Shown: positions 925-38,625 of the stretch, piece after piece
How the letters are laid out: the number at the start of each line of letters is the position of its first letter
How positions within the stretch are numbered: the stretch's first letter is position 1
Source of the DNA: a bacterium
GTDB lineage: Bacteria > Patescibacteriota > Microgenomatia > UBA1400 > PJMF01
Length of the DNA: 64,000 nucleotides
NCBI GenBank assembly: GCA_027620445.1
Contig: JAQBYG010000003.1
Location: 175-64,174, forward strand
Reading direction: 5' to 3'
The notes under the pieces: model-generated
Told to the model about the DNA's origin: nothing
What the model saw: only the letters and a program-made list of their open reading frames with translations
Databases searched by the model: none
Made by a program: the position numbers and the translations under genes

Positions 925-1590
925 TTATAAACTAATCCTCCAACTTAAGGCTCGTAGTAATACCTTTAGTGTATCAATAAAAGTCATCCCTCGGTCAAGC
1001 TCATGGTAAATCGTTGTGACTGGAATTGTAACAAAATCAAGTTTTGCTTTGGCAACTCGAGCAGCGATTTCCATCTCGACAGAGTAATCGGAAGAGTTCC
1101 AGGCAACTTGTTTATATGCCCTTTTCGAGAGCGCTTTGAAGCCAGAGGGAATATCTGGGATGTACGAACCAAACAGGAGCATCAGAAACACTGAGGCAAG
1201 TCTATTGAGCATGATGCGAATGAGGGGCATATTTTCATCAAATGAACGCACGCCGAATACAACATCATGTGCTTCTAGTGCTGCTGCAAATAACTCGATT
1301 TCAGTTGCTTCATGTTGGTCGTCAGCGTCAAAAAAGATCACTCCCTCTCCATTGAGTTTAGAAAACGCGTACTCACAACCGGTTTTGAGCGCCGCGCCTT
1401 TACCCAGGTTGATTTTGTGCGACAGAACATGTTCTGAGTGCTTCTGAGCAACCGCGAGTGTTTGATCACTCGAGCCATCATCTACCACGATGTACTGGAA
1501 TCCTTGTTTATTTAGCTTTTGTAGTACAACTGGCAATTTTTTTGCTTCGTTGTAGGCGGGGATAATTACCCAGATACTATTTTTTGTCAT
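925..1590 (-). CDS. GT2 glycosyltransferase, Dpm1/GtrB-like polyprenyl-phosphate sugar synthase (soluble, no GtrA domain)
   Basis: N-terminal IIPAYNEAKKL...VVDDGSSDQT and later FFDADDQH, a DxD-like motif. GT-A fold, about 220 aa, typical of dolichyl/undecaprenyl-phosphate hexose synthases. Confidence 0.7.
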   Translation of the reverse strand: MTKNSIWVIIPAYNEAKKLPVVLQKLNKQGFQYIVVDDGSSDQTLAVAQKHSEHVLSHKINLGKGAALKTGCEYAFSKLNGEGVIFFDADDQHEATEIELFAAALEAHDVVFGVRSFDENMPLIRIMLNRLASVFLMLLFGSYIPDIPSGFKALSKRAYKQVAWNSSDYSVEMEIAARVAKAKLDFVTIPVTTIYHELDRGMTFIDTLKVLLRALSWRISL

Positions 1591-2500
1591 GCTTATACCA
1601 CTCCACCACTCGCCTTACCCCCTCTGCAAAGCCAACAGTTGGTTCCCATCCCAATCTCTCTTTCGCTTTGGAGTAATCGAGTGAGCTAGTCACCTGCTCG
1701 CCTGGGCGCTCTGGCCCATGCTCTGGTGTGATTTGTACTCCAAATGCGTTCGCAACTTGCTGAAATACTTCATTCGAGCTGATCTCTGTTGTAGTGCCGA
1801 TGTTAAAGGCGCCTATCTCTGTAGAAGTCAATGCTAGCGCATTGGCGTTTACTACATCGTCGATGTAAACGTAATCTCTGGTGTGGGTGCCATCTCCATT
1901 AATTATTGGTGTTTTCCCTGCCGCGAGCATCTCACTAAAAATAGCAACAACGCCTGACTCTCCATGCGGATTTTGTCTTGGACCATACACGTTGGAGTAG
2001 CGCAGTATGGTGTATGGAATACCATACTGTTCGAAGTAATAATTAAGGTACAGTTCACCTGATCGTTTTGAAACCCCATAGGGAGAGAGCGGTTCTTCTC
2101 GCATTTCTTCAGTAAAGGGAGTTGGTTTGTTGCCGTACATAGCACCGCCTGTTGAAGCCATGATGATTTTCTTGATTGGAATTTCTTTCGCAGCTTGCAT
2201 GATATTGAGGACGCCAATGACGTTATTTTCGGCATCAAACTGAGGGTGCTTGACTGAGTTACCTACTTGGATGTGTGCAGCGTGATGGTTGATCACCTCA
2301 GGTTGTTCTTGCGAAATGATTTGTGTCACTGCTGCAGCGTCAGTAATATCGGCAGTAATCAGCCTGGCTTTTTTGTTGACAAATTCGGTTTTTCCCGTTG
2401 AGAGATTGTCTAGTACTACAACCTCGTGACCGAGCTCGCAGTAACGATCTACTACGTGCGATGCAATAAACCCAGCTCCACCCGTTACCAAAATTTTCAT
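1577..2500 (-). CDS. NAD-dependent sugar epimerase/dehydratase (UDP-hexose 4-epimerase-like SDR)
   Basis: MKILVTGGAGFIASHVVDRY Rossmann GxxGxxG motif, a YGVSK catalytic YxxxK motif, 307 aa. Confidence 0.75.
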   Translation of the reverse strand: MKILVTGGAGFIASHVVDRYCELGHEVVVLDNLSTGKTEFVNKKARLITADITDAAAVTQIISQEQPEVINHHAAHIQVGNSVKHPQFDAENNVIGVLNIMQAAKEIPIKKIIMASTGGAMYGNKPTPFTEEMREEPLSPYGVSKRSGELYLNYYFEQYGIPYTILRYSNVYGPRQNPHGESGVVAIFSEMLAAGKTPIINGDGTHTRDYVYIDDVVNANALALTSTEIGAFNIGTTTEISSNEVFQQVANAFGVQITPEHGPERPGEQVTSSLDYSKAKERLGWEPTVGFAEGVRRVVEWYKHDKK

Positions 2501-2510
2501 ATGTATATTT

Positions 2511-3674
2511 CTAGGCTACCCAATACCCTTGTATAAACAGCAGTGCGTTGTAGATCAGTAAGCTTACACTGAGCAGTATGAGTATAACCCGAGCAAGTGT
2601 ATTTTTCAGTAAAAGTTGTGACCAAATATAAAAGAGTGGAAATGCGACCAGAATGTAGCGCGGCATACTAGACAGGGTTCCCGTTAGGGTTGGGAGCACA
2701 AGGACTCCAAGTGTAAATATGAGCCAAGAGGTCGGTACTTTGAGTTGCTGACGTTTCCAGTACCCATACGCGAGTGTTGTAAATGCAAGCACAGTTAACA
2801 AAAGCTCTTGGGCGTAGGTGAGCCAAATTCGACTAATTGGTACGGTTGCTAAGATTTTTACTCCTCTCCACAAAGTCTGCGGTAGGAGGATGAGCGATTC
2901 TTGCCTCCCGGATCCAAACTCAGACTGGACGTGGAAAAAATAGAGAGGGTCTGAGAACTCGTACTGTAAAAAAGACATGAACGCTACCAGTCCAGCTAAA
3001 GAGAGAGAAAGTAAAGCAATAATAGGCAGTTTTTTTCTGACTGCTGCAATCAAGTGACGAGACTGTGTGGGAGATAGTAACTGCCAGATCAATGCCAGAA
3101 ACACAAATACCCCAACCAATCTTGTCGAGATTGCCAAACCAGTTGCAAGTGTAGCCAAAGGCCAGTGTTTTTTTTCTGCAGCTAGAAATGCTCCGAGGAC
3201 AAAGCACAGGAAGAATGCTTCTGAGTACACCGCGCCAAAGTAAAAAGAGGTTGGGAATAGCAAGAGCAGTGCCAGGCTAAACCAGCTGACTTTACTTGAA
3301 GCTCGTTGCTTCACCAACGCATAGAAAAAATACAGCGCAAAAGTAAGCGCAATAAAATTCAGTAACAGTGACACAATTGTGTGTGAAAATCCAAACGAAA
3401 CAAACTGAATAAAGAGTGGAAAGAGCGGAAAGAAGGCTTGGATCAAACCAGTGCCGATGTAGCCTTTTTCCATGATGGTCAGGTAATGCACGCCGTCGAA
3501 GTTTGCCCAGGAGTACATCCATTGTGGTAGGCCAAGCTTGGCGAGGAGATCATACGCATAGGGAAAGCTTGGGTCGTAGGGTATAACTCGTGGCGCCAGG
3601 ATGCTGAGGGCAAACAAGCCGATTCTCCATCCCAAAACTAATACTATAATTCTTCTAAGTAGAGATTTATTCAC
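2511..3674 (-). CDS. Polytopic membrane protein, PIG-V-like GT-C mannosyltransferase family (tentative)
   Basis: 387 aa with many hydrophobic segments. N-terminal WANFDGVHYLTIMEKGY resembles the W-x-WDG-x-HY-L motif of PIG-V/GT76-type mannosyltransferases. Confidence 0.45.
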   Translation of the reverse strand: MNKSLLRRIIVLVLGWRIGLFALSILAPRVIPYDPSFPYAYDLLAKLGLPQWMYSWANFDGVHYLTIMEKGYIGTGLIQAFFPLFPLFIQFVSFGFSHTIVSLLLNFIALTFALYFFYALVKQRASSKVSWFSLALLLLFPTSFYFGAVYSEAFFLCFVLGAFLAAEKKHWPLATLATGLAISTRLVGVFVFLALIWQLLSPTQSRHLIAAVRKKLPIIALLSLSLAGLVAFMSFLQYEFSDPLYFFHVQSEFGSGRQESLILLPQTLWRGVKILATVPISRIWLTYAQELLLTVLAFTTLAYGYWKRQQLKVPTSWLIFTLGVLVLPTLTGTLSSMPRYILVAFPLFYIWSQLLLKNTLARVILILLSVSLLIYNALLFIQGYWVA

Positions 3675-5283
3675 GCCACTTTCTTGCTGAAATTAATAAC
3701 CAAGCAAGCGCAAGCAGCGAGACTGTATTTCCAACCAATCGTGCTGGTGTATTTTGAGTAAAGCGAGTGCTCACTTGGTACTCTCCCGCAGGCAAACGAT
3801 ACGCAATCCTGCCGGCGATTTCTTCACTCTGGAGGTACTCGACTTTAGCTGCCGTACCATTTTGCTCTACTGTGGTTTCCCAGCCAGGGAAGTACATGGT
3901 TGGCTCGATCACTATTGTTTCAATGCTCAATGTAAGTGAGTATTTTCTCGAGCTTCCATTCCACGAATGCACTGCAACATTTCCGGATTCTGGGTTGAGT
4001 AGCATTGGAGCAGGTTGCCAATCTCCAATTTGTGTATATGAAAACTGCCTTGTCCTATTTTCATTTTGTGTGCTTGTGCTTTGCGAGAAAACATCATAAT
4101 CAAGATTAGTTTTGTGAAAAAAATCGACCGGAGAAAGTCTTGAAATAGAAATAACTTGTACTGTCAGAACAACCATTAGCAGACGCTGCATGAGTCGACT
4201 CTGCTGTACAACGAAAATAAGTCCAGGAATCAGTAGTGCGCCAGTGAACAGACTCAGCCTCCAAGGAAATTGGATAAAGCTGGCGGCAGGAACTGCACTC
4301 CAGAGAGACTCGCTCATCCAAAGTTGACCGAGAGCTGTTGTCCATGCCAATGCCAACAATAGAAGTATTGAGTTTACACCCTGCTTTTGCCTACCGATAC
4401 AAAAAATGGTGGCTCCAAAAAGTACAACCAATATAGGAAGACCGAGTGAAAAAGAGAGCGAATCTACGTCTCCGGGGTAAGAGAATCCAAAACCAAGCGG
4501 GCTCCAAAGAAGTTGTTGCAATGAGACGAAGTGCTCGAAATAAGTAGAAACAAGCGAGGTTTCGCTAACTACAGTGTATGACATTTCTGCCACTGCAGGC
4601 AGCCAAAACCAGAAGCTGAGTGCTACTGCCCAACCAAAAACAGCAAGATGCCGCAGTAGTAGTTTTCTTGATCTATGAGATTGCATAAAAGAAATAAGAA
4701 GAAACATGCCAGTACCAAGCACGGCAGAAATGTTATGACTGAGCAAAAAAGCTGTGAAAATCACGATCGCAAACATTCGCTCCTTTCGCGAATCTGTAAG
4801 TGAAATTTTCAGTAACCAAGGTAACAGTGACAGCGCGAAAACTTCACCAATGTTTCCGCGAAAGTAGATTGTTGAAACTAAATATGGCTGTAGCAACCAA
4901 AAAATAGTAGCAAGTACTTGTGTAGGAACCGTCGCCTTAAAAACCTTGGAGAGTTGCCAAACCCCAATTGACCCAAACATGACGCTTGCTACAACAAGAA
5001 TCTTAAATGTTAGCTCATATGAAACACCGAGTATGGAAAATGGTAGAGAGAGAATGTTGGCAAGAGGGTAATTAAAGTTAAATACCGGGTATCCATAATG
5101 ATTCAGTAAGTTTGGTGCAAAACGTGGTGGAAACTGACCTTCCCTGAGAGCAATCTTATAATTGGCAAACCGAGCTAAGTGATTCTCTCCATCATGCGTG
5201 TACGGAAACGATGAGCTAAAATAAAGATGGAAGAGAGCTATAAAGGCGCTGCAGACAAGAATCAGTAAGCCAATTCGCTTCAT
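3667..5283 (-). CDS. Large polytopic membrane protein, paralog family A (uncharacterised; GT-C-like or PTPS-related membrane protein candidate)
   Basis: N-terminal signature HDGENHLARFANYKIALREGQFPPRFAPNLLNHYGYPVFNFNYPL, shared with ORFs 11910, 15533 and 34623. Multi-TM N-terminal half and a beta-rich C-terminal domain. The ORF track starts at 5352, but the start is more likely the internal Met MKRIGLL at 5283, which abuts the upstream GT4 stop. Confidence 0.5.
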   Translation of the reverse strand: MKRIGLLILVCSAFIALFHLYFSSSFPYTHDGENHLARFANYKIALREGQFPPRFAPNLLNHYGYPVFNFNYPLANILSLPFSILGVSYELTFKILVVASVMFGSIGVWQLSKVFKATVPTQVLATIFWLLQPYLVSTIYFRGNIGEVFALSLLPWLLKISLTDSRKERMFAIVIFTAFLLSHNISAVLGTGMFLLISFMQSHRSRKLLLRHLAVFGWAVALSFWFWLPAVAEMSYTVVSETSLVSTYFEHFVSLQQLLWSPLGFGFSYPGDVDSLSFSLGLPILVVLFGATIFCIGRQKQGVNSILLLLALAWTTALGQLWMSESLWSAVPAASFIQFPWRLSLFTGALLIPGLIFVVQQSRLMQRLLMVVLTVQVISISRLSPVDFFHKTNLDYDVFSQSTSTQNENRTRQFSYTQIGDWQPAPMLLNPESGNVAVHSWNGSSRKYSLTLSIETIVIEPTMYFPGWETTVEQNGTAAKVEYLQSEEIAGRIAYRLPAGEYQVSTRFTQNTPARLVGNTVSLLALAWLLISARKWRE

Positions 5284-6323
5284 GATATTGCTCTTTGATA
5301 TGCTGCAATTGTCGCTACAGCTGTTTTCTGCCAGGTAAAAGTTTTGCTCCAAGCAATACTTTCTGCTGCCAGTCTTATTCTGTGATCCTGAGTCAGGGCG
5401 TGGATTAACAATACCTGCTCTGCCAGAGATTCAGCAGTTTCAGTAGCAAAAAACGCAAGAGCTCCACCTACCTCAGGAAGCGATCCGAGTCGAGTAGAAA
5501 CAACAGGAGTGCCGCACTGCATAGCCTCAAGCACAGGCAAGCCGAAGCCCTCTGACAATGATGGTTGGACTAAGCAAAGAGCTTCAGAATACAAAACTGA
5601 AAGTACGTCTGTTTCGTCTGGACCCACATCTGTATAAAAATGCACCCGATTGGCTACGTTGCTCAGGGCAATTTGACGCTCAATTGCCTCCCATTCAGGA
5701 ATGGGCTGTGGTGTGAAGTTTTTGCCGACACAAACCAGTGCGATGCTATCAGGCAAGAATTTTAGCATTTTAATCAGCTGAGGAATATTTTTGTTGTAGT
5801 TGATATCTCCCACATACAAAACATACATTTTTGGTAGTTTGAGTCGACGACTTATTTTCGCAACAGTTGTAGTATCTTGAGGTGTAACCGCTGGATTTCC
5901 TGCAAGTGGTACTACAGATATTTTTTCTTCTGGGAATCCTAAGTACTGCAGCAGCTGTCCTTTTGAAAACTCTGAATCTGTAATGACGTGAGCAATTTTT
6001 TGCAGTGATCGCTTTTGTCTGAGATGCGCGAGCTTTCCTCGAATGCCGGGTTTGTAGTGCTCAGGAAATTGGAGAGGAATCAGATCATGAATTGTTATTA
6101 CGCCAGGAATTGAACGATGGAGATGAAGTGTGGGTGCAAATAAGTCAAAGTACGGGTAATGAATGAGATCAAACTCTCCTTTGGAAATACTTCTGCGCTT
6201 GGTGATCCTTGTTACCTCTATGCTCTCCTTTTCTAGAGCTGCAACAAGTTCCCGTGTGTACGTGCCAATGCCCCTTCGAGAGTGACCGCCAAGGAGTGGG
6301 GTTGTATCCATGGCAACTCTCAT
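5280..6323 (-). CDS. GT4 (group 1) glycosyltransferase
   Basis: C-terminal SLSEGFGLPVLEAMQCGTPVVSTRLGSLPEV is the E-x7-E retaining GT-B motif. Confidence 0.75.
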   Translation of the reverse strand: MRVAMDTTPLLGGHSRRGIGTYTRELVAALEKESIEVTRITKRRSISKGEFDLIHYPYFDLFAPTLHLHRSIPGVITIHDLIPLQFPEHYKPGIRGKLAHLRQKRSLQKIAHVITDSEFSKGQLLQYLGFPEEKISVVPLAGNPAVTPQDTTTVAKISRRLKLPKMYVLYVGDINYNKNIPQLIKMLKFLPDSIALVCVGKNFTPQPIPEWEAIERQIALSNVANRVHFYTDVGPDETDVLSVLYSEALCLVQPSLSEGFGLPVLEAMQCGTPVVSTRLGSLPEVGGALAFFATETAESLAEQVLLIHALTQDHRIRLAAESIAWSKTFTWQKTAVATIAAYQRAIS

Positions 6324-7105
6324 CGCTGCGTACTTTCTTGCGTTTCCCAGAGTTTAATGGCGACAACAGGATGATGCAGAGCACTCAGGCTTGCAAAGAG
6401 AAATCCGCGCCAGCCGTCTACATAGCCACGATGACGTATAAATAAAAGAAAAAAAGTTCGACAAGGATCAAACAGAAATGCTTTCACAGTATGCAAAACA
6501 CTCGGTCTCGTTTCGAGTTTCCACAAACGCTCGGCTTCGAAAGATGTATAGCGGTTAAATTTTTCTAGGTAGCTTGCAAGAGTAGGATAAGGGTAATGCA
6601 GTAGGTGACCTTCGGCAGTTCCTACTTCGCCAAATACTCTTAGTTGTTCATGCACATTTTCTTGTGGCAGCTCTGCTTTCCCTCTATAAAATAACCGAAT
6701 TACAGAATCAGGATACTGCCCTCCTTTGCGCAAAAAGTCGCCCAAAAAATCATTTTTCCGTTTGATATACCAAGCTACTGGGGCACTTGTCGATAACGAC
6801 TCGACAGCGACCTTGCCTTGCTTAGCGATAAAACGAGCTAGCTCTTGATCGACCACCTCATCAGCGTCTAGCTGAAGAAGTAAGTCACCCTTGGCTGCGT
6901 CGATTGCGAGCTGCTTGTTGATATGAAAGTTTGTATTGTTTGGAATCGAAATAACTCGAGCACCAAACTTTTTTGCCAAGGTCACTGTATTGTCACGCGA
7001 AGAACCATCGACAACTAAGATCTCATCTGCAAAATCTTTGACTGAATGCAAACATCTGGTGATATTCGCCGCTTCGTTGTGTGTAGCCAAGACAACTGAG
7101 ATCAT
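6320..7105 (-). CDS. GT2 glycosyltransferase (paralog of 30501 and 32244)
   Basis: ISVVLATHNEAANI...VVDGSSRDNT...LDADEV are the GT-A DxD-type motifs. ATGA overlap with the upstream GT4. Confidence 0.75.
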   Translation of the reverse strand: MISVVLATHNEAANITRCLHSVKDFADEILVVDGSSRDNTVTLAKKFGARVISIPNNTNFHINKQLAIDAAKGDLLLQLDADEVVDQELARFIAKQGKVAVESLSTSAPVAWYIKRKNDFLGDFLRKGGQYPDSVIRLFYRGKAELPQENVHEQLRVFGEVGTAEGHLLHYPYPTLASYLEKFNRYTSFEAERLWKLETRPSVLHTVKAFLFDPCRTFFLLFIRHRGYVDGWRGFLFASLSALHHPVVAIKLWETQESTQR

Positions 7106-7119
7106 AGGATTATTTTACT

Positions 7120-8676
7120 CTAGAACTTGGTTATCTCCCACCCAGAACCATTCCACTCGACCAGAACTGTCTCTTCAGCAGTTCGATCGGCTGCTTGCGC
7201 AATAAAGTGAAACCGGCCTGCCTGTTGGCCATACCGAAAGCCTATCTGATTTGGTGCCTGGCGCACTACACTAGAGAAGTATTCACTCGGCGAGAGTTGG
7301 GCATACCACGCAGCCAAAATATACTGATAGCCACCACCATCCACAACTGCGACTTCTGCATCCGGGAATTCTTGCTTAACTTGTATCATTGCCTGCTCAA
7401 AACCAGGTTGAAACATAAGTTGATCACTTTTGTACTCTACAAAGTAATTCTGTGAGTAACGAAACAGTGAAAGCAGGCCAAGAACCGAGATGAGCAGCCA
7501 AAAGTGTTTGCCAACTCTTTTACTTATTGATTCATATGCTACTCCAGCCGAAGTTATCAGAAGGAAAAAGAAAAAAAGACTCCTGGTGGTATGTGGCGCA
7601 TCGGTGGTAATGCTAGACGGGAGAAGTGATATACCAAGTAGAAGCAAAAGAACAAACATTCTCCCCTGGTGACTTTTCCAGGGCTGACTCCAGTCAATGC
7701 GCTGTTTCAAGATTGTTGCGACTGCAAGCACGACCCCTATGAGAGCAAGGAGATACTGCCACCAATAAATATGCCCCCAATCTGGGACTGAGTGCCACGG
7801 ATGGGAGCCTCCCTCTGTAATCAGAAAACGAGGCGAAAATGCTCTGACTGCATTTGCTACTACCTCTGGTGCAAAAAAAATGACTTTATTGCCCAACACT
7901 TTTTGTAAGCCAGTCGGAAGTGCCGATCGATACTCATTGAAGGCAAGTGAGGCCTGCTCATCAGAAAAAAGCGTGATATTTTGTTTTTGTTCAAAAACTG
8001 GTTGTAGTAAAGCTAGCGCAAGCAGTGTGAGAAGAAGCCAGCCAGAAAATACAGGTGTCCACTTCCGCCAATATTTGTAGCCATGTACAAATATGATGAT
8101 CGGAAGCAGCAAAATACCTAAAAGGAGCGGTGAATTGTAAGTAAATACTGCTGCAGCATAAGCGGCTAGAATCACAAGTTTTTTCAACAACGTTGGTCTT
8201 AGTACGTCACTCAGTAGTGTGGTCAAGCTCAAAACGAAAAAAAGAAGGGCAACATTGGCCTCAAACGCGATCCGAGAGTAAAAAATAAAAACGGGGGCAA
8301 TTGCCAACATGGCCGCAAGAAATACTGCAGCCTGGTTTCTAAGCTTTAGTGTTCTTGCAAACCAGTAACCCACAACTAGTAAACCAATTCCGCTTAATGC
8401 AGATGGTATGCGAACCCAAAAGTCATTGAGTGGAACAATTTTGAAAAGAGCGGCCAACACTGCGGAATACCCAATCAGCTTGAAGTCGCCAAACGACTCA
8501 AGGCTCACTGGCCAAGGTCTCCCCCACTCGTCTTGTCCAACCGAACTGAGCAAATAGCCGTTATAGGCTAGGGCTGCCTCGTCTCGGTTGAGGATGCTCG
8601 GCAAAGATCCGAGTTGCCAAAAACGGGGAATCGCAAGTAACGGAATCACTAAAAGCAAGAAAAGGATTTTTTTCAT
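7120..8676 (-). CDS. GT-C membrane glycosyltransferase, ArnT/PMT_2 (GT39/GT83-like), family 1
   Basis: First-loop motif NRDEAALAYNGY...GQDEWGRPWPVSLESFGDFKLIGY, about 12 TM segments, C-terminal extracytoplasmic domain. Downstream member of tandem pair 1. Confidence 0.7.
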   Translation of the reverse strand: MKKILFLLLVIPLLAIPRFWQLGSLPSILNRDEAALAYNGYLLSSVGQDEWGRPWPVSLESFGDFKLIGYSAVLAALFKIVPLNDFWVRIPSALSGIGLLVVGYWFARTLKLRNQAAVFLAAMLAIAPVFIFYSRIAFEANVALLFFVLSLTTLLSDVLRPTLLKKLVILAAYAAAVFTYNSPLLLGILLLPIIIFVHGYKYWRKWTPVFSGWLLLTLLALALLQPVFEQKQNITLFSDEQASLAFNEYRSALPTGLQKVLGNKVIFFAPEVVANAVRAFSPRFLITEGGSHPWHSVPDWGHIYWWQYLLALIGVVLAVATILKQRIDWSQPWKSHQGRMFVLLLLLGISLLPSSITTDAPHTTRSLFFFFLLITSAGVAYESISKRVGKHFWLLISVLGLLSLFRYSQNYFVEYKSDQLMFQPGFEQAMIQVKQEFPDAEVAVVDGGGYQYILAAWYAQLSPSEYFSSVVRQAPNQIGFRYGQQAGRFHFIAQAADRTAEETVLVEWNGSGWEITKF

Positions 8677-10316: not shown

Positions 10317-10343
10317 ACTGTTGTTCTATCATATCCAATCTGG

Positions 10344-11906: not shown

Positions 11907-11909
11907 AAT

Positions 11910-28618: not shown

Positions 28619-28619
28619 G

Positions 28620-29423: not shown

Positions 29424-30504
29424 TAGCGAATACTGTTCTCACTTGATTTGTAAAACGCTCTTCACCAAATACTTTTGCCCTCTCAATTGCAAGCGAACTA
29501 TGCTTTTGCAACATACTTGGATTAGCAATCAACTTGCTCGTTATGCTTGCGCAATCTTCTTGTGTCTCCCAATTGAGAGACTGTAATTCTGAACCCAATA
29601 CTTCTCTCTGTCCACCTTTTGCTACAACCACTGGTACAGCACCTGCTGCCATCGCCTCAACAGTCGTGATGCCAAAATGTTCCACTTGTTCTGGGTGAGC
29701 GCTTTCATCCACACCGAACCCTGTCGCGTGCCAATAAATGCTCGCTTTTGCGTACAACTCCAAAAGTTCTTGTCGTGAGCAACTGGTTTTTATTTCGATC
29801 GGCAAGTCAGCGCTCGCTCGACGTATCTTGTCAAGATAATCCGAGTTCTCAACCGTACCAACAAGAACTAATTTCCAATCAGATGTAGCGGGGTGTTGTT
29901 CTCGCATTAGGCGAAAATTTGCTACTAAAATATCTTGGCGCTTGCTATGCAATTGGGTGAAAAATCGACCGACATGCAGAATGATTTTCTCCTTCTGTTG
30001 ATTTAGCGAAAATAATTCAGAGGCTACCATGGGTTGTAAAACGCTCGACACCTCTTTGTTCCAGGATTTTTCAATCACCGATTTGGTGAACTCCGAGTTG
30101 GTATTCAACTCCCAAAACCGCAATTTGAGACGGTTGAGTACGCCACTTGGATATGAGGCGAATGGAATTTGCAAATGAACAATGTTCTTTTTTGCCAACG
30201 AAAAAAAGAGCGACCCATCACTTACCGCAAATAGATATGAAAACTGCTTGGTCCAAAGCAACTTTTCTAAGAACCCTGCAGTAGTTTTAATAGGACTGGC
30301 GACAAAAGAAACTCTCGCAAGCGACGCACCATAAAATCGTTCATATTGCTGACGAATCTGAAATTCATCAGGGCTAGAGTTTCGTTTTGGGAACGCAATA
30401 ACCACTTGTAACTCACTAGGAAGGTGCGTAGCAATATCAAGCAAGTGCCGTTCGCCCCCGCCAAAGTGATCAGGGAAATATGGGGAGAATAGACAAACTT
30501 TCAC
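29416..30504 (-). CDS. GT4 (group 1) glycosyltransferase
   Basis: FGITTVEAMAAGAVPVVVAKGGQREVL E-x7-E region. ORF track starts at 30588, but a GTG at 30504 forms a GTGA overlap with the upstream GT2 stop, and the protein would then begin MKVCLFSPYFP, typical for GT4. Confidence 0.7.
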   Translation of the reverse strand: MKVCLFSPYFPDHFGGGERHLLDIATHLPSELQVVIAFPKRNSSPDEFQIRQQYERFYGASLARVSFVASPIKTTAGFLEKLLWTKQFSYLFAVSDGSLFFSLAKKNIVHLQIPFASYPSGVLNRLKLRFWELNTNSEFTKSVIEKSWNKEVSSVLQPMVASELFSLNQQKEKIILHVGRFFTQLHSKRQDILVANFRLMREQHPATSDWKLVLVGTVENSDYLDKIRRASADLPIEIKTSCSRQELLELYAKASIYWHATGFGVDESAHPEQVEHFGITTVEAMAAGAVPVVVAKGGQREVLGSELQSLNWETQEDCASITSKLIANPSMLQKHSSLAIERAKVFGEERFTNQVRTVFAIG

Positions 30505-31316
30505 GATTTTTTTGACCAAAGGTCTGCTATTTCTTTTTCTGCGGCTTTGTATTGTTGCGGAATTGAAGGTTTTTGTTGTAGCTCCCAAACTTGCATGTAC
30601 ACCAACATTTTATTAATCCCTTGGGTTATCGCCTCCATCATTCCCGCCTGACCATCACTATAACCTCGCCAAAAAAAGCCTCGTCGCAAAAACTCCATAA
30701 CTCCTTTACGAATAACGGTTTTCGGCGTGACTGCAAAAGTAATTGCCTCACTCAGTAACTGCGCTTCAAGCCCAGTCCAAACTGCGCTCTTCAGCAAGCC
30801 GGCCGCCACAGACCGGTGTGTCAGATGTACAAGAGGAATGTGTAAGCGTGCAGCGGTTCCCTCATAATCTGGGCTTTCATGCACAACGCCTTTCCACTCC
30901 TTCAAACTTGTCTTGCGAAATACTCGGGTAACTAAATCTGGCGACCAACCACCAGCTGAGAAGGCTTGACCAAAAAAAATGTTCTTACGCTCAAGCTGCA
31001 ACGCTGTATCTGTACCCGTCTCCATGTGTACTTGTATCTCTTTAGCCAACTGTGGCAAAATCCGCTCGTCGGCATCAAGATACAGCAACCAATCTGTCTC
31101 AACATACTTAAGTGCCTCATTTCGAAGTCGCGAAAAAGAAGAGTGAGCAAATGAGACCACTTTTGCTCCAAATTGTTCTGCTATTTTTGGCGTGTCATCG
31201 GTTGAACCTGAGTCGATCACGAGCACTTGATCACACCAACGAACTGTATTGAGACAAGCTTCAAGCATCTCGGCCTCGTTTTTTGCAATAATGACTGCTG
31301 TAATCTTTTCTTGCAT
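30501..31316 (-). CDS. GT2 glycosyltransferase (paralog of 6320 and 32244)
   Basis: ITAVIIAKNEAEML...VIDSGSTDDT...LDADERI. Confidence 0.75.
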   Translation of the reverse strand: MQEKITAVIIAKNEAEMLEACLNTVRWCDQVLVIDSGSTDDTPKIAEQFGAKVVSFAHSSFSRLRNEALKYVETDWLLYLDADERILPQLAKEIQVHMETGTDTALQLERKNIFFGQAFSAGGWSPDLVTRVFRKTSLKEWKGVVHESPDYEGTAARLHIPLVHLTHRSVAAGLLKSAVWTGLEAQLLSEAITFAVTPKTVIRKGVMEFLRRGFFWRGYSDGQAGMMEAITQGINKMLVYMQVWELQQKPSIPQQYKAAEKEIADLWSKKS

Positions 31317-31325
31317 AGACCTTCC

Positions 31326-32240
31326 TCAAATAATCAATTGTTTTCCGTCTTGTCCTATCAAAAAATGCCAAGTAGCTTTTTGCTCTAATCTAGATCCATT
31401 CGATAAGCGCTGGAAGAGAATTTTGAAAACCCGAGCTTTAATTCTCCAGCCACCGTACTTAAAAAAGAAAAACAAGCGATTGCGCAGAAGATAATATACA
31501 TGGAACTGTGAGCCACTTCCCCCACTTGAGCTTGCGTTGATGTGCCAAACCTTAGCAGCATCACAATACCCAATCTGGTAACCGAACAACCGTGCACGCA
31601 TACTGAGATCGACATCTTCTAAATACAGAAAATAGCGTCTGTCCAAAAACCCTGCTTTTTCGAGAACCTCCCTCCTAATGAGAGCACAACAACCCGTCGC
31701 AAAATCACATAGCTCCTGATGCGCAAATTGCAAGCGATCGAGCTCGTCTACTCCTCGGTGATGCGCAACTAGATGATCCCAGTCTACGCTTCCACCTGCA
31801 TACCAGAGGACATTGCCGCGATCTTTTTGTGTATAACTTTGATTGTGATACTCTTTGCCCTGAGCAAAATAAATCTTGGCTGAAACAATGCCCATATGCG
31901 GTCTCGCTTCCGCGAACTCAAATAACTGCTCAAGAAAATGTGGGTCTTGAATTGTGTCGTTGTTGAGCAGCAACACATACTCTGAATCAAACTGCTCAAT
32001 CGCCGTGTGAATACCTAGATTGTTTCCACCGGTGAATCCAAGGTTAGCGTCACTTCTGAGCAAGAAAAATTGCTTGGTCGAAAGTTTTGTTGGCAAGTGA
32101 TATGGCTCAATTGATGCGTTGTCGACCACAAAAACCGAGAATGCGAACTGTTTATGCACAAGCTTTGTCAGTGACAACAAACAATCGTCTGTCAGTTTTT
32201 TCTGATTATAATTTACGATAATTATAGAGATATGTTTCAT
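31326..32240 (-). CDS. GT2 glycosyltransferase
   Basis: ISIIIVNYNQKKLT...VVDNASIE...LNNDTI motifs, typical of rhamnosyl/galactosyl GT2 enzymes. Confidence 0.75.
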   Translation of the reverse strand: MKHISIIIVNYNQKKLTDDCLLSLTKLVHKQFAFSVFVVDNASIEPYHLPTKLSTKQFFLLRSDANLGFTGGNNLGIHTAIEQFDSEYVLLLNNDTIQDPHFLEQLFEFAEARPHMGIVSAKIYFAQGKEYHNQSYTQKDRGNVLWYAGGSVDWDHLVAHHRGVDELDRLQFAHQELCDFATGCCALIRREVLEKAGFLDRRYFLYLEDVDLSMRARLFGYQIGYCDAAKVWHINASSSGGSGSQFHVYYLLRNRLFFFFKYGGWRIKARVFKILFQRLSNGSRLEQKATWHFLIGQDGKQLII

Positions 32241-32243
32241 AAA

Positions 32244-33140
32244 CTAGATTCTGAACTTCCTACGAACTCGCCACACGAGCACTTGTAGTCCCTGAGCACT
32301 TCGAAGCTCTTCATCTGCAATCCAGTATGCTAATTGAGCTCTGAGCTCATGCAATTCTTTGATCGAGTCCGTTTTGGCTCCAAACAAATTGTTCTGTTTT
32401 ACTTCCCAAAACTTAGCAGTTTGTACTACCTCAGAAAAGCCTTGTAACAGCGCAAGTAAAACTCCACGATAGCCGCCCTCGATACCACGTAACGCAAAAA
32501 GGCGTTGTAAAAATTCTCGTCGGAACACAACAATTGGATGCTCAAGATCTATCCCTGGTTTTTGGGTTGTGACATCTGTCGCAATGCTTGTGTATCGATC
32601 AAGACGCTGTACAAACTCAGAGAGCGTTTCATAATTATGGTGCTCAAGTGCAAGCTCGGCAGTTGCAGGCAATTTCTCAAATGTGCCATCGATTGTTGGC
32701 TTACTGTGAATGGTGTCTGACCACAATACTTTACCTCGTTTAAAAAGTCGCGGCTGATAATCGGGCCACCAACCAGCTGTCTGTACCCACTCGCCAAAAA
32801 TGATATTTTTCCTGGCAATAGAGTAACTGGATACGTCACTTTCTACTTTGAGCAACTGAAGCAAGTGATCTCGCAGTGCTGGCGGAATTACTTCGTCGGC
32901 GTCAACAATTAAGATCCAGTCACCACTTGACTTGCTCAGAGAAAAGTTTCGTGCTGGTTCTACGTACCCAACATCTGGGGTAAAAAACACCTTATCGGTA
33001 AATTTGAGAGCAATCTGCTTGGTAGTATCGCTACTCATCATGTCCACGACAACAATCTCGTCAGCAAACTGCACAGACTTGAGTGTCCGCTCCAGTGTGG
33101 CGGCGGCATTTTTTGCAGTAATAACAACGCTGAGTTTCAT
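32244..33140 (-). CDS. GT2 glycosyltransferase (paralog of 6320 and 30501)
   Basis: LSVVITAKNAAATL...VVDMMSSDTT...VDADEVI. Confidence 0.75.
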   Translation of the reverse strand: MKLSVVITAKNAAATLERTLKSVQFADEIVVVDMMSSDTTKQIALKFTDKVFFTPDVGYVEPARNFSLSKSSGDWILIVDADEVIPPALRDHLLQLLKVESDVSSYSIARKNIIFGEWVQTAGWWPDYQPRLFKRGKVLWSDTIHSKPTIDGTFEKLPATAELALEHHNYETLSEFVQRLDRYTSIATDVTTQKPGIDLEHPIVVFRREFLQRLFALRGIEGGYRGVLLALLQGFSEVVQTAKFWEVKQNNLFGAKTDSIKELHELRAQLAYWIADEELRSAQGLQVLVWRVRRKFRI

Positions 33141-33153
33141 ACTATGTACTATT

Positions 33154-34626
33154 CTACGCAGAATTACTTAATTTTTCAGTCCGAACTGCGAGTAAACTGC
33201 GAATTTGCGAGAAAATGACTGTTTTGCCAACTGCTAAGAGGACAACTCCATATGTGGCGGCGGTTAGGCCCATACCGAGTACTAGCCACCAAACGGATCT
33301 TATCCAGAAACTCCCGCCAAGGAAGCCAAGTACTGCCATGACAACTACAGCCAAGAGTTGTCGCCAAACCTGCTCCCACACTTGCAAAACAACAAAACGT
33401 TTGACATACCAGACAGATAAAAATGAGCTACAGCTGATGATGAGCGCAGCGGCGGCAATTCCAGTGAAGCCGTACCAAATCAAGAGGAGCGGAGAAACAA
33501 CCCAAGTAAGAATTGTCCAGATAACCATTAATTTCAGTGTGTAGTTAATTTGCCCTATCGCAGTCAATGCTGTTGTCAGAGGAGAAGAAATTGAACTCCA
33601 GGCGATGCTAAGGGTAAAGAAAATGAAACTCGGTATGGCAGGCTGCCACTTGGCGTAAGTTGGAAATAATTCAATGAGTGGAGAGATAAAAAGTACCATG
33701 CCACAGAGAATCGGGAAAATTGCCAAAGTAATAAAAAAGAGAGATTTTTCGATCGCCGATTGCAGTTGTTTCGGACGATCTTGCAGTCGAGAGAAAGTGG
33801 GAAAAGTGACTGCCATCACATTGTTCACGGTGAGCGCATAGGGATACATAGACCAAGTCTTTGCCCACTGTACGTATCCATTTTCTCTCAGTGGCAAAAC
33901 ATAACCGAGGAACAAAAAAAACAATTGATCTTTAATGCGAGCCAGGAAGTCATTGAGCTGGAACTTGAGACCAAAACCAAGTAACGATTTTAGCGCAAGC
34001 CAGTTGGTAGAGAACCCAATCTGCCAACGCTTAATTAACATGAGTGTGATGACTCCCAGTACCGAGCGGATTACTATTGCCGGAACGTAAGCAAGTGCGC
34101 CCCAACCAGCAATCGCAAGCCAGATTAAAACACCTTGAAAAGCAACCTGCTCTACGATCTGGGGAATGACGAGCTTGGAAAAAAGCAACTGCCGCTCGAG
34201 CATAACGGAAGGTATCGTCTTGAGCGTAGCCAAGGGAAATGAAATCCCGAGTGCGAGCAATATATAATTACCGACCATGCCAGTTTTCTGTGAGAGTAGG
34301 TCAGTTGAGGCTACGCCCACGCAAACCAAGAGTATGACAAGTGAGAGCACAAACTGTACAGTAAAAACGCTGCGATATTCCTCGAGCGTTGGCTCAACCT
34401 TTTTTTGTATGAGTGTCGAAGCTAATCCTATGTCTGAGAAAAAAATCAGAATACCAATGATAGTGAGCACTATGCCATAAATACCAAAATCTTCCGGGGC
34501 AAAGTAAGCACTCAGGATAATTGCAGAAACAAATCCTATTCCTTGTAGAAACAAGGATCGAGCAAAGTACGAAACCGCACCAGAAACTGACTTTCGCTTG
34601 AGTGTCTGAACTTCGGCTTTATTCAT
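33154..34626 (-). CDS. Wzx-type oligosaccharide/polysaccharide flippase (MOP superfamily)
   Basis: 490 aa, about 14 TM segments. The N-terminal basic region followed by GIGFVSAIILSAYFAPEDFGIYGIV is typical of the polysaccharide biosynthesis protein / Wzx family. Confidence 0.65.
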   Translation of the reverse strand: MNKAEVQTLKRKSVSGAVSYFARSLFLQGIGFVSAIILSAYFAPEDFGIYGIVLTIIGILIFFSDIGLASTLIQKKVEPTLEEYRSVFTVQFVLSLVILLVCVGVASTDLLSQKTGMVGNYILLALGISFPLATLKTIPSVMLERQLLFSKLVIPQIVEQVAFQGVLIWLAIAGWGALAYVPAIVIRSVLGVITLMLIKRWQIGFSTNWLALKSLLGFGLKFQLNDFLARIKDQLFFLFLGYVLPLRENGYVQWAKTWSMYPYALTVNNVMAVTFPTFSRLQDRPKQLQSAIEKSLFFITLAIFPILCGMVLFISPLIELFPTYAKWQPAIPSFIFFTLSIAWSSISSPLTTALTAIGQINYTLKLMVIWTILTWVVSPLLLIWYGFTGIAAAALIISCSSFLSVWYVKRFVVLQVWEQVWRQLLAVVVMAVLGFLGGSFWIRSVWWLVLGMGLTAATYGVVLLAVGKTVIFSQIRSLLAVRTEKLSNSA

Positions 34627-36281
34627 TCTTGCCGCTCCCTATGCAACATAATGCCAAATAAAACGAGTATGCTCACAACTGAAATGCCGTTTGCCCAAGT
34701 GCGAATTGGTGTCGGCAAAAACAGTACGCCCACAAGGTGCGAACCTGTTGGCACAGTCACTTGTAACAAGCCTTCTGCTGATTTTTGGTGACCAACTCGC
34801 TTTCCGTCAATTTCAACCTGCCAGCCAGGAAAATCTGCAATTGCAAATGTAAGCTCAGTTTCATCAGTGAATGTCGCAAAGACGAGTTTTTCATGCACTC
34901 GATTCACGAGCTCACTTTCCTGAGGAAGAGTTGGGTCAATAACTACTTTCGAAAAATTAACTGGCACTGCTGTCTCGTCAAAACTTTCTGGCATGAAATC
35001 AGGCAAAATGCCACTCATACTCTCTGCTATCTGAGACTCATCAGCAGAGTACAGTTGCTCTGGATCAGCAAGATATGACTCTGGCCTAAAGTATCGCGCA
35101 TTACTGAGCAAAAGAATCACAAGGAAACCGGTTATAACAATCTTGAGTACCCTACCACGCAGAGTCATAACTCCACTTGTGATAGCTAGTGATAAGAAAA
35201 TAATGGCAACAGAAAGAAATCTCCAGGGAAACTGGACGAATCTGAGGACTTCTACCTGATCCCAGATAAACAACGTTTTTTCTGTCGTCATTAGTAAAGC
35301 AACACAGCCCAACAGAAATGAAAAAACAGCCAGCATGAGCTGATAGCTACGTACATTTTTCTTCTTGCGAATAGTTTGGAAAACTGCGGCTGCTACCAAA
35401 ACAAATCCAGTCAACATGCCGTAACCGAGAAAAAATGAGATCTCATCGACCGGACCCCAGACAGAACCTCCATATCCCCAGTAGGGAGTGATAAGTTGTC
35501 GCAGGTACAGAAAGTGCAGATGAAAATCAAAGTAGTGTGTCAAAATTCTGCCTTCCACTTGAGTGAGTGATTTTTCAAGAAAGGCTGGGAGTATATAGTA
35601 GGCAGCCATTCCAACCCCAAGCAACGTGCTCCCGAGTGTCGTGATCGCTTGTTTCCATGCTTTTTTGTACACGATGAATACCAGTGCAAACAAAGTGAAA
35701 AAAGGCAAAAAGATCATCGTGATCAGGTTATGACTCAATAACAAGCCAGCAGTGCTCAGAGCCAACACGACCCAACCATGCCGATGTTTCTGCAACACCA
35801 GTACAAGCCCCAGAAGCATCCAGACACTAGCCGCAATGCCCCAGGCTTCACTAATCGCACCCCTAATAAAAACATTAACAGCGCGATATGGTGCAAGCGT
35901 GATGAGGGCAGAAAGCAAGAGTGCTCCAATTGATCCAAACAATCGCTTGCCAAGATAGTACGCTGCGACAATGGTTAAGAGGTTCGCAAGAAAAAATACG
36001 CTTGAAACCGAAAAAAGTATCGAGCCAAAAAGCCAAAAAACAAACGCCCCAAAGTAGTACGGCAAGGGAGCATAAAAAAGATAGAGTGGCATGCCATACC
36101 CATATCCAAAGTTCTGGCTCCACTGTGGAGGAATGTGACCATCCGTAACTGCTCGAGTCATCTCGGCAATTCGCGCACCATGCGTATAATCATGCACACG
36201 AAAAAAGCCAGAATGAAAAAGCGGCCAACTACTGGCGACCAAAATAAGCAGAAGCGCGTTAGCGACGAGTAATCTTCTCAT
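34623..36281 (-). CDS. Large polytopic membrane protein, paralog family A
   Basis: HDYTHGARIAEMTRAVTDGHIPPQWSQNFGYGYGMPLYLFYAPLPYY signature. ATGA overlap with the flippase gene. Confidence 0.5.
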   Translation of the reverse strand: MRRLLVANALLLILVASSWPLFHSGFFRVHDYTHGARIAEMTRAVTDGHIPPQWSQNFGYGYGMPLYLFYAPLPYYFGAFVFWLFGSILFSVSSVFFLANLLTIVAAYYLGKRLFGSIGALLLSALITLAPYRAVNVFIRGAISEAWGIAASVWMLLGLVLVLQKHRHGWVVLALSTAGLLLSHNLITMIFLPFFTLFALVFIVYKKAWKQAITTLGSTLLGVGMAAYYILPAFLEKSLTQVEGRILTHYFDFHLHFLYLRQLITPYWGYGGSVWGPVDEISFFLGYGMLTGFVLVAAAVFQTIRKKKNVRSYQLMLAVFSFLLGCVALLMTTEKTLFIWDQVEVLRFVQFPWRFLSVAIIFLSLAITSGVMTLRGRVLKIVITGFLVILLLSNARYFRPESYLADPEQLYSADESQIAESMSGILPDFMPESFDETAVPVNFSKVVIDPTLPQESELVNRVHEKLVFATFTDETELTFAIADFPGWQVEIDGKRVGHQKSAEGLLQVTVPTGSHLVGVLFLPTPIRTWANGISVVSILVLFGIMLHRERQE

Positions 36282-37413: not shown

Positions 37414-37571
37414 TAAAACAACAGCCAATTGCTCCAAATCGGATAATTCAGGTTCTAGTGGTTATAATAGTTGTACTAGCACTGCTCGCTGGCTACTACC
37501 ACGCCTTGTATCAAACAGAAGTTAGAAAGCAAATAGAAATTTTGAAAGCCAATCCAACAGTACAACAGTAA
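37410..37571 (+). CDS. Possible small single-TM protein (53 aa), not in the ORF track
   Basis: ATGA overlap with the LCP stop. Manual translation gives MIKQQPIAPNRIIQVLVVIIVVLALLAGYYHALYQTEVRKQIEILKANPTVQQ, with one clear hydrophobic helix. It fills an otherwise unexplained 167-nt gap before rfbB. Confidence 0.25.
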   Translation: MIKQQPIAPNRIIQVLVVIIVVLALLAGYYHALYQTEVRKQIEILKANPTVQQ

Positions 37572-37580
37572 TTCTACCCT

Positions 37581-38612: not shown

Positions 38613-38625
38613 TCGAAGGGAACAT

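Follow-up and report, generated by a model that had tools for sequence, protein, structure and literature searches.

The 64,000-nt stretch of DNA analyzed here (the window: contig JAQBYG010000003.1 of assembly GCA_027620445.1, positions 175 to 64,174 of the forward strand) comes from a bacterium of the Patescibacteriota (Microgenomatia; UBA1400; PJMF01) and carries a large glycosylation locus that includes 19 polytopic membrane glycosyltransferases (GTs) of the GT-C superfamily. We worked with a set of 53 open reading frames (ORFs) of at least 150 amino acids (aa), which tile the whole window (Table 1); all 53 were scanned against Pfam, and ten membrane proteins plus the soluble glycosylation enzymes against NCBIfam. 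Thirty-nine of the ORFs are glycan-related, namely orf02–orf28 in a first block (925–36281), orf29 and rmlBCD directly behind it (36280–40044), and orf46–orf53 in a second block (55176–64000). The original prediction, made from the sequence alone, had placed nearly all non-housekeeping genes in the two blocks, and this holds once the adjoining LytR-CpsA-Psr (LCP) gene and rmlBCD are counted with them. Together these genes occupy ~48 kb, probably several per cent of the genome, whose size of ~0.8–1.3 Mb was taken from the longest related contigs and not from the present organism. The contig behind the window is a metagenome-assembled one of 64,496 bp (locus tags O2840_..., proteins MDA10792xx), nearly all of which the window covers, and it also occurs in the ENA assembly ERZ23495043. 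GC content runs at 39–49% along the window without a sharp break and is slightly lower in the blocks (0.39–0.45 versus 0.43–0.48).

Nineteen GT-C membrane proteins

All-against-all BLASTP sorted the 19 large membrane proteins into Family I (PMT_2-like; orf08, 09, 15, 16, 17, 18, 20 and 21), Family II (PTPS_related/YfhO-like; orf05, 11, 14 and 28), Family III (PMT_2/Agl23-like; orf10 and orf49) and five singletons: orf46 (PMT), orf19, orf04 (PIG-V-like), orf13 (ALG3-like fold) and orf47 (MptA_B). Nine of them pass the Pfam cut-offs for PMT_2, PMT or PTPS_related, four more match below threshold, and six have no Pfam match in the local scan. Although orf09, orf11 and orf16 have no Pfam match, they are clear paralogues of matching members (BLASTP 1e-15 to 5e-49). 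The PMT-like members share the PMT/PMT_2 N-terminal module with its DE motif, and profile comparison by hhalign connected Family I with Family II over the N-terminal 190 columns (probability 95.8%) and, for the weakest case, the orf19-family profile, built from three orthologues, with Family I (probability 91%, E = 9.5e-7, 190 columns). A precomputed annotation of the orf46 orthologue in a close relative lists both PMT and PMT_2.

Comparison by hhalign among the orf13 family, the orf47 family and orf04 found no relationship, so the GT-C status of these three rests on structure or precomputed Pfam. AlphaFold2 (AF2) models of orf04 and orf13, built from 35–36 sequences, are all-helical membrane bundles; the source-named members of the orf13 sequence family all come from bacteria of the Candidate Phyla Radiation (CPR). 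The precomputed Pfam family PF26314 (MptA_B_family) is assigned to P0121, which is identical to orf47 from its annotated start, and to all 120 listed homologues, whereas orf47 stayed without a Pfam family in our local scan even at E ≤ 5, a mismatch that probably reflects a difference in library version or threshold. The PF26314 assignment, which is one of family and not of alpha-1,6-mannosyl specificity, places orf47 with the MptA/MptB mannosyltransferases. A simple hydropathy scan, which is crude and undercounts, found 6–10 clear transmembrane (TM) segments in each of the 19 proteins (GT-C expectation 8–13). Searching PDB sequences with the Family I and II profiles yielded nothing useful. The automatic NCBI name of orf28 is '6-pyruvoyl-tetrahydropterin synthase-related protein', that of all five Family I/III proteins in the look-up is 'glycosyltransferase family 39 protein', and some others are listed as 'hypothetical protein'.

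Residues of catalytic type are strongly conserved. Aligning 129 Family I sequences, drawn from the window and from homologues in related loci, showed acidic residues in 127 of them at D/E32 and E33 (a pair after the first TM segment, TM1), D49 and E139; R135 is kept in 128 and R365 in all 129. D54 (within H53-D54) and R61 are invariant in all 26 Family II sequences. An invariant HEE of orf19 aligns to the xDE motif of Family I, D30 and D34 after TM1 are invariant in the orf13 family, orf04 has an invariant D60, and in orf47 D23 is at least 90% conserved and D106 invariant. Because the residues preceding TM1 are rich in Lys/Arg, the loop with the acidic motif presumably faces outward by the positive-inside rule.

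These results bear on the reading that the large membrane proteins are transporters or something else and that their density is an artefact of weak matches. While four of the 13 Pfam matches indeed fall below the gathering cut-offs and six proteins lack a local match, nine exceed the cut-offs, the GT-C acidic motif is nearly invariant, and no transporter family was matched among the large membrane proteins save Wzx and a Na+/H+ exchanger that is unrelated and lies elsewhere in the window; the non-glycosyltransferase reading thus retains next to no probability and is effectively refuted. The assignment of all 19 proteins to the GT-C superfamily stands. The predicted count of 19 was reproduced by hidden Markov model (HMM), BLASTP, profile and structure tests, and the family assignments made by eye were upheld by the HMM, profile and structure tests. 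An extracytoplasmic C-terminal domain had been proposed for all 19; this fails for three GT-C_B-type proteins (387–423 aa), which have none.

Several gene models deserve comment. The N-terminal ~43 aa of orf16 are absent from its paralogues, and the ORF call is probably over-extended there; the 71-nt overlap of the divergent orf16 and orf17 arises because the longest-ORF call adds this extension. The convergent orf14 and orf15 share 59 nt where their 3' ends meet. In a Rifle-type relative (locus L026, 11235–12912), the orf14 orthologue is called as two genes (352 and 205 aa), owing to either a frameshift/pseudogene or an assembly error. Within the C-terminal 100 aa of orf19, C408, C444, C457 and C464 are invariant in three orthologues, a pattern consistent with a disulfide-bonded extracytoplasmic domain.

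Soluble transferases, flippase, ligase and sugar genes

The blocks also encode 11 GT-A/GT-B enzymes (nine GT2 and two GT4), two fewer than the 13 first counted. For four of them (orf02, orf12, orf48 and orf50), the best NCBIfam matches are exclusively polyprenyl- or dolichyl-phosphate GTs (PpgS, AglJ, PgfS, ArnC-type and the halobacterial Dol-P hexose transferase). The four proposed Dpm1/GtrB-like synthases therefore hold as best family matches, all of them below the NCBIfam equivalog cut-offs. According to the hydropathy scan, a TM anchor of the kind usual in CsbB/GtrB is missing from three of them. The other seven GT2/GT4 enzymes look like cytoplasmic chain-building GTs. Synthase-like genes lie close to GT-C genes: orf12–orf13, orf48–orf47 and orf50–orf49 are adjacent pairs that recur in relatives, and orf02 with galE lies by orf04 and orf05. 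These pairings suggest which donor may serve which GT-C.

The gene for the Wzx flippase (orf27) adjoins orf28, as it does the orf28 homologue in loci L002 and L030. This conserved pairing suggests that the YfhO-like orf28 may handle a flipped lipid-linked oligosaccharide. Divergent from the orf28–Wzx–GT operon lies the LCP gene, followed by rmlBCD, a layout shared by L002; no RmlA was found in the window. Pfam, NCBIfam and PDB matches confirm Wzx, the LCP ligase and the nucleotide-sugar enzymes. The genes for RmlBCD, Gmd plus Rmd, Ugd and GalE imply L-rhamnose, D-rhamnose, glucuronate and galactose or N-acetylgalactosamine (GalNAc). Whereas the original prediction left both sugars and acceptor open, the sugars can thus be derived in part (dTDP-L-rhamnose, GDP-D-rhamnose, UDP-glucuronate and UDP-galactose or UDP-GalNAc), and only the acceptor stays as it was.

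Among the 53 ORFs and the called genes of loci L023 and L031, no Pfam or NCBIfam match to a phosphoglycosyltransferase (WbaP/Bac_transf or WecA/MraY type) was found. Nor does the window contain a Wzy_C match, and all its large membrane proteins are accounted for as GT-C, Wzx or Na+/H+ exchanger; Wzy proteins are divergent, so that a missing match is no proof of absence. The window is likewise without a match to a chain-length regulator or teichoic-acid enzymes: TagO, TagA/B/F-type enzymes, the TagGH ABC exporter and CDP-glycerol/CDP-ribitol enzymes are all missing from it, and of the teichoic acid pathway only LCP is present. The absence of a recognizable initiating phosphoglycosyltransferase or Wzy among the window ORFs was thus correctly predicted and, with the missing ABC exporter, agrees with the claim that the region does not fit a standard O-antigen, capsule or teichoic acid locus. 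Because priming enzymes are often encoded elsewhere in a genome, the lack of one in the window is not decisive.

Table 1. Genes and other features of the 64,000-nt window. L numbers designate related loci.
Feature	Position	Strand	Assignment and evidence
AbiEii gene, 5' part	1-295	-	AbiEii-type nucleotidyltransferase toxin; Pfam PF08843, 6e-12; cut by left window end
orf01	282-884	-	200 aa, upstream of AbiEii gene
orf02	925-1590	-	Short GT2, polyprenyl-phosphate sugar synthase-like (PpgS/AglJ-like); Glycos_transf_2 4e-25; NCBIfam best PpgS 7e-27, AglJ 4e-22, below equivalog cut-offs; 75% orthologue in L031
orf03	1577-2500	-	GalE-like UDP-hexose 4-epimerase; Pfam Epimerase 4e-61; PDB phmmer best UDP-glucose 4-epimerase 4zrm, 2e-86; TIGR01179 galE 193 bits, below 262-bit cut-off
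orf04	2511-3674	-	PIG-V/Gpi18-like GT-C, no soluble domain
orf05	3667-5352	-	Family II; Pfam PTPS_related 7e-13, above cut-off; paralogue of orf11, orf14, orf28
orf06	5280-6323	-	Cytoplasmic GT4 (GT-B); Pfam Glycos_transf_1 and Glyco_transf_4
orf07	6320-7105	-	Cytoplasmic GT2; Pfam Glycos_transf_2 1e-20
orf08	7120-8676	-	Family I (PMT_2/GT39-like); PMT_2 27.6 bits, cut-off 26.1; DE motif; NCBI name GT39
orf09	8673-10316	-	Family I; no Pfam match; BLASTP orf20 5e-49, orf18 6e-25; motif conserved
orf10	10344-11906	+	Family III, Agl23-like; PMT_2 33.7 bits; TIGR03663 3.5e-10; paralogue of orf49
orf11	11910-13598	+	Family II; BLASTP orf28 3e-36, orf14 1e-27
orf12	13595-14311	+	Short GT2, polyprenyl-phosphate sugar synthase-like; NCBIfam best AglJ 1e-22, PpgS 2.5e-19, dolichyl-P hexose transferase 2e-15; 81-91% identity in relatives, there always directly upstream of orf13 homologue
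orf13	14308-15555	+	GT-C_B enzyme, ALG3/PIG-M/PimE-like fold; sequence family without Pfam entry
orf14	15503-17221	+	Family II; Pfam PTPS_related 3e-12; paralogy by BLASTP
orf15	17163-18812	-	Family I; PMT_2 26.9 bits and PMT 23.8 bits, both above cut-off; NCBI name GT39
orf16	18813-20696	-	Family I; BLASTP orf15 1e-15, orf17 4e-12
orf17	20626-22317	+	Family I; PMT_2 43.9 bits; NCBI name GT39
orf18	22308-24002	+	Family I; PMT_2 34.3 bits; NCBI name GT39
orf19	23978-25456	+	Divergent GT-C_A; HEE replaces DE motif; Cys-rich C-terminal domain; Pfam sub-threshold
orf20	25453-27084	-	Family I; PMT_2 sub-threshold; BLASTP orf18 7e-52, orf09 5e-49
orf21	27047-28618	-	Family I; PMT_2 sub-threshold; BLASTP orf18 1e-39
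orf22-orf26	28620-33140	-	Five consecutive cytoplasmic GTs: GT2, GT4, GT2, GT2, GT2; Pfam Glycos_transf_2, Glycos_transf_1; NCBIfam sub-threshold rhamnosyltransferase-, GlfT1-, EpsD-like; order kept in L028, L029, L099
orf27	33154-34626	-	Wzx/MOP-family flippase; Pfam Polysacc_synt_3 160.7 bits; 85% orthologue in L002
orf28	34623-36281	-	Family II; PTPS_related, PMT_2 and YfhO C-terminus; paired with Wzx; weak PgfM1/PgfM2 C-terminal matches
orf29	36280-37413	+	LCP glycopolymer-peptidoglycan ligase; N-terminal TM helix; Pfam LytR_cpsA_psr 86 bits; TIGR00350 67.5 bits, above 62.3 cut-off
orf30-orf32	37581-40044	+	RmlB, RmlC-like, RmlD-like (dTDP-L-rhamnose); TIGR01181 440 bits, above cut-off; rmlC/rmlD below
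Housekeeping stretch	40041-55195		See text
ORF beside gltX	40722-41801	+	No Pfam family; N-terminal TM helix
ORF beside gltX	43247-43981	+	No Pfam family
Racemase to regulator row	51760-55195		See text
tRNA-Gln	54418-54489		Single tRNA
orf46	55176-56762	-	PMT-like GT-C; Pfam PMT 25.3 bits, cut-off 22.7; 76% orthologue in L023
orf47	56740-58011	-	MptA_B-family GT-C; annotated start gives 423 aa; longest ORF reaches 58062
orf48	58013-58777	-	Short GT2, polyprenyl-phosphate sugar synthase-like (PgfS/ArnC-like); NCBIfam PgfS 2.5e-18, ArnC-type 9e-17
orf49	58774-60288	-	Family III (PMT_2); Pfam PMT_2 29 bits; NCBI name GT39
orf50	60301-61491	-	GT2 fused to GtrA-like membrane domain (synthase and putative flippase); Glycos_transf_2 96 bits, GtrA_DPMS_TM 55 bits
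orf51-orf52	61497-63424	-	Gmd and Rmd-like reductase (GDP-D-rhamnose); TIGR01472 gmd 444 bits, above cut-off; orf52 best PDB match GDP-6-deoxy-D-lyxo-4-hexulose reductase 2pk3, 1e-60
orf53	63424-64000	-	3' part of UDP-glucose 6-dehydrogenase (Ugd); Pfam UDPG_MGDP_dh_C; frame open to window end; full-length orthologue 432 aa in L023

Conservation in related bacteria

By GltX, the closest genome is that of 'Candidatus Paceibacterota bacterium CG_2015-01t_44_17' (80% identity), and a GltX-based genome scan showed only two close relatives among 21 loci. Source-named homologues belong to Microgenomates-type CPR bacteria (Pacebacteria, Woesebacteria, Beckwithbacteria and 'Microgenomates group bacterium GW2011_GWA2_47_8'). 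The contigs of relatives were retrieved in part, and the conservation figures cover the fetched parts. A relative from Crystal Geyser (103.6-kb contig; loci L002, L023, L031 and L032) has orthologues of orf01–orf19, orf26–orf32 and orf46–orf53 in the same order and with 57–91% identity; its unretrieved gap of ~6.6 kb matches the size of orf20–orf25 (6.8 kb). The GW2011_GWA2_47_8-type (Rifle-type) relative (L026, L033) keeps orf06–orf19 in order at 42–90% identity, and the more distant L028 has orf10–orf25 rearranged at 24–81%. On a 1.29-Mb contig (L030/L084), the module of the second block (Ugd, short-chain dehydrogenase/reductase, Gmd, GT2/GtrA, PMT_2, GT2, MptA_B and PMT) is joined to an orf13 homologue in a fused cluster, which also holds more GT-Cs, a YfhO-like gene and Wzx and adjoins trmD. 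Fifteen metagenome loci with an orf13-family gene at their centre and a length of at least 20 kb carry 1–12 GT-C-like ORFs (median 7), with at least four in 13 of the 15.

For every paralogue there is a separate orthologue, matched one-to-one and in gene order. Since identity among the paralogues inside the window does not exceed 35% and the orthologues keep their order, the duplications are old and each copy has been kept, which argues for non-redundant functions and hence for a defined, conserved product. We conclude that the locus is a lineage feature of Microgenomates-type ('Pacebacteria') CPR bacteria and not a strain-specific island. A comparison of synteny had been proposed to see whether the island is conserved or strain-specific, and a conserved, already characterized locus would have counted against the original prediction. 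The region is conserved, with one-to-one orthologues in related CPR bacteria, and we found no description of GT-C-rich loci in CPR in the literature searched, where two apparent leads (PMC8172020 and PMC12419801) proved irrelevant; the existing NCBI names are automatic.

The same comparisons speak to another reading, according to which there is no single pathway and the locus is a cluster of independent synthase plus GT-C modules with different acceptors (wall polymer, lipoglycan and proteins), possibly as a means of surface variation in the face of phages or hosts. Four synthase/GT-C modules can be marked out, the second block moves as a unit (window, L023 and L030), part of an AbiEii toxin gene is found at the left border, and in Firmicutes several GT-A/GT-C pairs with differing acceptors coexist (PMC8035078). 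We nevertheless regard this arrangement as improbable, given that orthologues are one-to-one and ordered across genera without presence/absence variation, that the blocks contain no mobile-element genes, that none of the twelve Family I/II paralogues comes with its own synthase, and that the two blocks are fused into one cluster in L030.

Three further explanations of the locus were rejected. Against a horizontally acquired or strain-specific island stand the only slightly lower GC content and the synteny in relatives from Crystal Geyser, a Rifle-type aquifer and other sites; an assembly chimera was rejected on the same grounds; and against a recently amplified, diversifying array of paralogues stands the contrast between paralogues at most 35% identical and orthologues 57–91% identical.

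Beyond the position of the left window edge, the Crystal Geyser relative (L031, 13400–21140) carries a DUF2304 gene and genes for a GT2, an epimerase and two GT4 enzymes, together with a UDP-GlcNAc 2-epimerase, a UDP-sugar dehydrogenase and a methyltransferase. With these extra genes, the full glycan region of the lineage probably exceeds the window. At that edge of the window itself, orf01, upstream of the truncated AbiEii gene, may encode an AbiEi-like antitoxin; its homologue is present in the Crystal Geyser relative, but there glycan genes come next.

Between the blocks lies a housekeeping stretch with genes for TrmD, GltX, YbeY, DnaX, YbaB, Ham1, an M29 peptidase, a phosphorylase and the Na+/H+ exchanger. 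Two conserved ORFs flank gltX on either side, with 85% and 71% identity in a close relative. At the far end of the stretch, genes for an Asp/Glu racemase, a D-Ala-D-Ala ligase (Ddl) and a VanX-type D-Ala-D-Ala dipeptidase stand in a row, followed by the tRNA-Gln and an OmpR-type winged-helix regulator; the row directly adjoins the second block, and this arrangement is kept in L023–L025. Peptidoglycan precursor remodelling and regulation might thus be linked to the glycan locus.

A proposed envelope glycan and its known counterparts

Taking these observations together, we consider it fairly probable that the two blocks form one functional unit whose product is a complex glycopolymer of the cell envelope, assembled chiefly on the membrane's outer face. 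From the genes present, their families and folds, the conserved residues of catalytic type and the synteny, we infer donors, order of steps, acceptor and final attachment as follows. Nucleotide sugars would be supplied by RmlBCD (dTDP-L-rhamnose), Gmd plus Rmd (GDP-D-rhamnose), Ugd (UDP-glucuronate) and GalE (UDP-galactose or UDP-GalNAc). The seven cytoplasmic GT2/GT4 enzymes would make a lipid-linked primer or repeat unit that Wzx flips across the membrane, while the four Dpm1/PpgS/ArnC-like GT2s would charge polyprenyl phosphate with single sugars, to be flipped by the fused GtrA domain and/or Wzx. Outside the cell, the 19 GT-Cs, each with its own specificity, would extend and branch the glycan from these polyprenyl-phosphate donors, and LCP would join the product to peptidoglycan; alternatively, the product may stay lipid-anchored. 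A polyprenyl-phosphate sugar donor for the GT-Cs is suggested by context, the four synthase-like genes lying next to GT-C genes, and glycosylation from lipid-linked donors at the outer face, as originally predicted, stays the best reading after the HMM, profile, structure and synteny tests. The ratio of four synthases to 19 GT-Cs favours chain building over decoration with single sugars.

Five points weigh against this proposal. Enzymes of protein glycosylation (PMT, PgfS/PgfM and AglJ) are among several of the best matches. The synthase matches (E about 1e-18 to 7e-27) lie far below the equivalog cut-offs. The topology comes from the hydropathy scan and otherwise from AF2 models. In L030, the LCP gene is not adjacent to the shared modules within 21 kb, and its adjacency is seen only in the close relative. 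Finally, neither the window nor the ~75 kb viewed of the closest relative contains a priming phosphoglycosyltransferase, Wzy, ABC exporter or stand-alone GtrA, which leaves the start and export of the presumed polymer unaccounted for.

The first of these points belongs to the chief rival, protein O-glycosylation, in which PMT-like and YfhO/PgfM-like GT-Cs would move polyprenyl-phosphate sugars to Ser/Thr residues of surface proteins (S-layer, pilins and adhesins), with long O-glycans built stepwise outside the cell. PMT and PMT_2 are matched by 11 of the 19 GT-Cs, orf48 and orf50 have PgfS as best match and the C-terminus of orf28 weakly resembles PgfM1/PgfM2 (all from the S. mutans protein-glycosylation system), and orf02 and orf12 match AglJ, an archaeal S-layer N-glycosylation enzyme. 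In addition, the Gmd–Rmd pair yields GDP-D-rhamnose; D-rhamnose is known from S-layer glycans, and S-layers and pili have been reported on CPR cells. The LCP ligase, Wzx and the run of cytoplasmic GTs, however, point to a wall-bound, lipid-linked glycan. No window protein matches the MIR or PMT_4TMC domain in Pfam, and the window encodes no secreted protein rich in Ser/Thr (orf34, orf36 and orf01 were checked as possible glycoprotein targets, and none stands out in Ser/Thr content); moreover, a single Pmt suffices for characterized bacterial O-mannosylation. Nor do PMT_2/YfhO matches decide the acceptor, because GT-Cs of this type in Firmicutes also modify teichoic acids and wall polysaccharides (PMC8035078). 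On balance, we judge protein glycosylation to be a live rival but a rather unlikely main function of the locus.

How does the proposed envelope glycan locus compare with known systems? With Wzx/Wzy O-antigen or capsule loci it shares Wzx, a run of cytoplasmic GTs and nucleotide-sugar genes, yet no initiating phosphoglycosyltransferase, Wzy, chain-length regulator or ligase of that type was found in it, and GT-Cs dominate. A likeness in design is offered by mycobacterial and corynebacterial arabinogalactan and lipomannan/lipoarabinomannan (LM/LAM), whose synthesis (Emb, AftA–D, MptA/B, PimE, PpgS plus GT-C, and Lcp1) employs, as is proposed here, many extramembrane GT-Cs and few polyprenyl-phosphate donors; the MptA_B member orf47, the PimE/ALG3-like fold of orf13, the PpgS-like orf02 and the LCP ligase all have counterparts there. 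In mycobacteria, few lipid-phosphate donors supply many GT-Cs, and the ratio of four to 19 recalls this. The present locus differs in belonging to another phylum with a ~1 Mb genome, in its genes being gathered in one place instead of scattered, in showing no Emb/Aft-type families or decaprenyl-phospho-arabinose genes, in its implied sugars (L-rhamnose, D-rhamnose, glucuronate and galactose or GalNAc) and in its mostly PMT_2-like and YfhO-like GT-Cs.

The eukaryotic mannosyltransferases of the endoplasmic reticulum (ER) lumen that serve the ALG and glycosylphosphatidylinositol (GPI) pathways (ALG3, ALG12, PIG-M and PIG-V) resemble the locus in their compact, all-membrane GT-C_B architecture and in the Dol-P-Man-type donor that the adjacent Dpm1-like GT2 would imply. 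Sequence identity is only 11–12%, without family membership at the sequence level, and the context here is a bacterial envelope. As the ALG3/PIG-M group has been called apparently eukaryote-specific in one review (PMC4973528), the modelled orf13 family would add bacterial relatives to it at the level of the fold.

Gram-positive wall polymers are modified by multi-component (three-component) transmembrane glycosylation systems (CsbB/GtcA/YfhO, GtlA/GtlB, CsdAB and GacI/J/K/L; PMC8035078), which bring together a GT-A synthase of polyprenyl-phosphate sugars, a GtrA- or Wzx-type flippase and a PMT_2/YfhO-type GT-C. In the window, four GT2 enzymes are candidate synthases, GT-Cs are present in excess, and the flippase is represented by the GtrA_DPMS_TM domain fused in orf50 and by Wzx, with no stand-alone GtrA gene; as in streptococcal and lactococcal rhamnose polysaccharide loci, rhamnose genes and LCP lie close by. 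In those systems each synthase has a single GT-C, and individual sugars are attached as decoration; the locus, by contrast, has 19 GT-Cs for four synthases and contains no ABC exporter, TagO/GacO or Wzy.

Every component belongs to a known superfamily, and NCBI already names several of them. The novelty lies in the arrangement, in which 19 GT-Cs from six or more sequence families crowd into ~48 kb of a small genome, together with few donor synthases and with no canonical initiation or polymerization genes in the window. This arrangement is kept across genera, and no characterized system is known to be as dense. Much of bacterial diversity belongs to the CPR, whose members are for the most part uncultured and are thought to live attached to hosts, and their surface chemistry is essentially unknown. 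A conserved ~48 kb with 19 outer-face GTs in a ~1 Mb genome suggests heavy investment in one elaborate surface glycan. A wider picture is quite possible, though by no means the expected one: in Microgenomates-type CPR bacteria with genomes of ~1 Mb, about 19 specialized GT-Cs, one of them from a bacterial ALG3-like family without a Pfam entry, might act as an extracytoplasmic assembly line, claiming several per cent of the genes, that turns a few polyprenyl-phosphate sugars into a large and conserved heteropolysaccharide of the envelope. Such a line would be an independent bacterial counterpart of mycobacterial arabinogalactan/LAM synthesis and of the ALG pathway in the ER lumen, and its product possibly the main surface structure for episymbiosis. 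With 19 GT-Cs facing four donor synthases, the locus would extend the Gram-positive 'decoration' systems towards full extracellular chain synthesis. The pairs orf12–orf13, orf48–orf47 and orf50–orf49 offer concrete targets for heterologous reconstitution.

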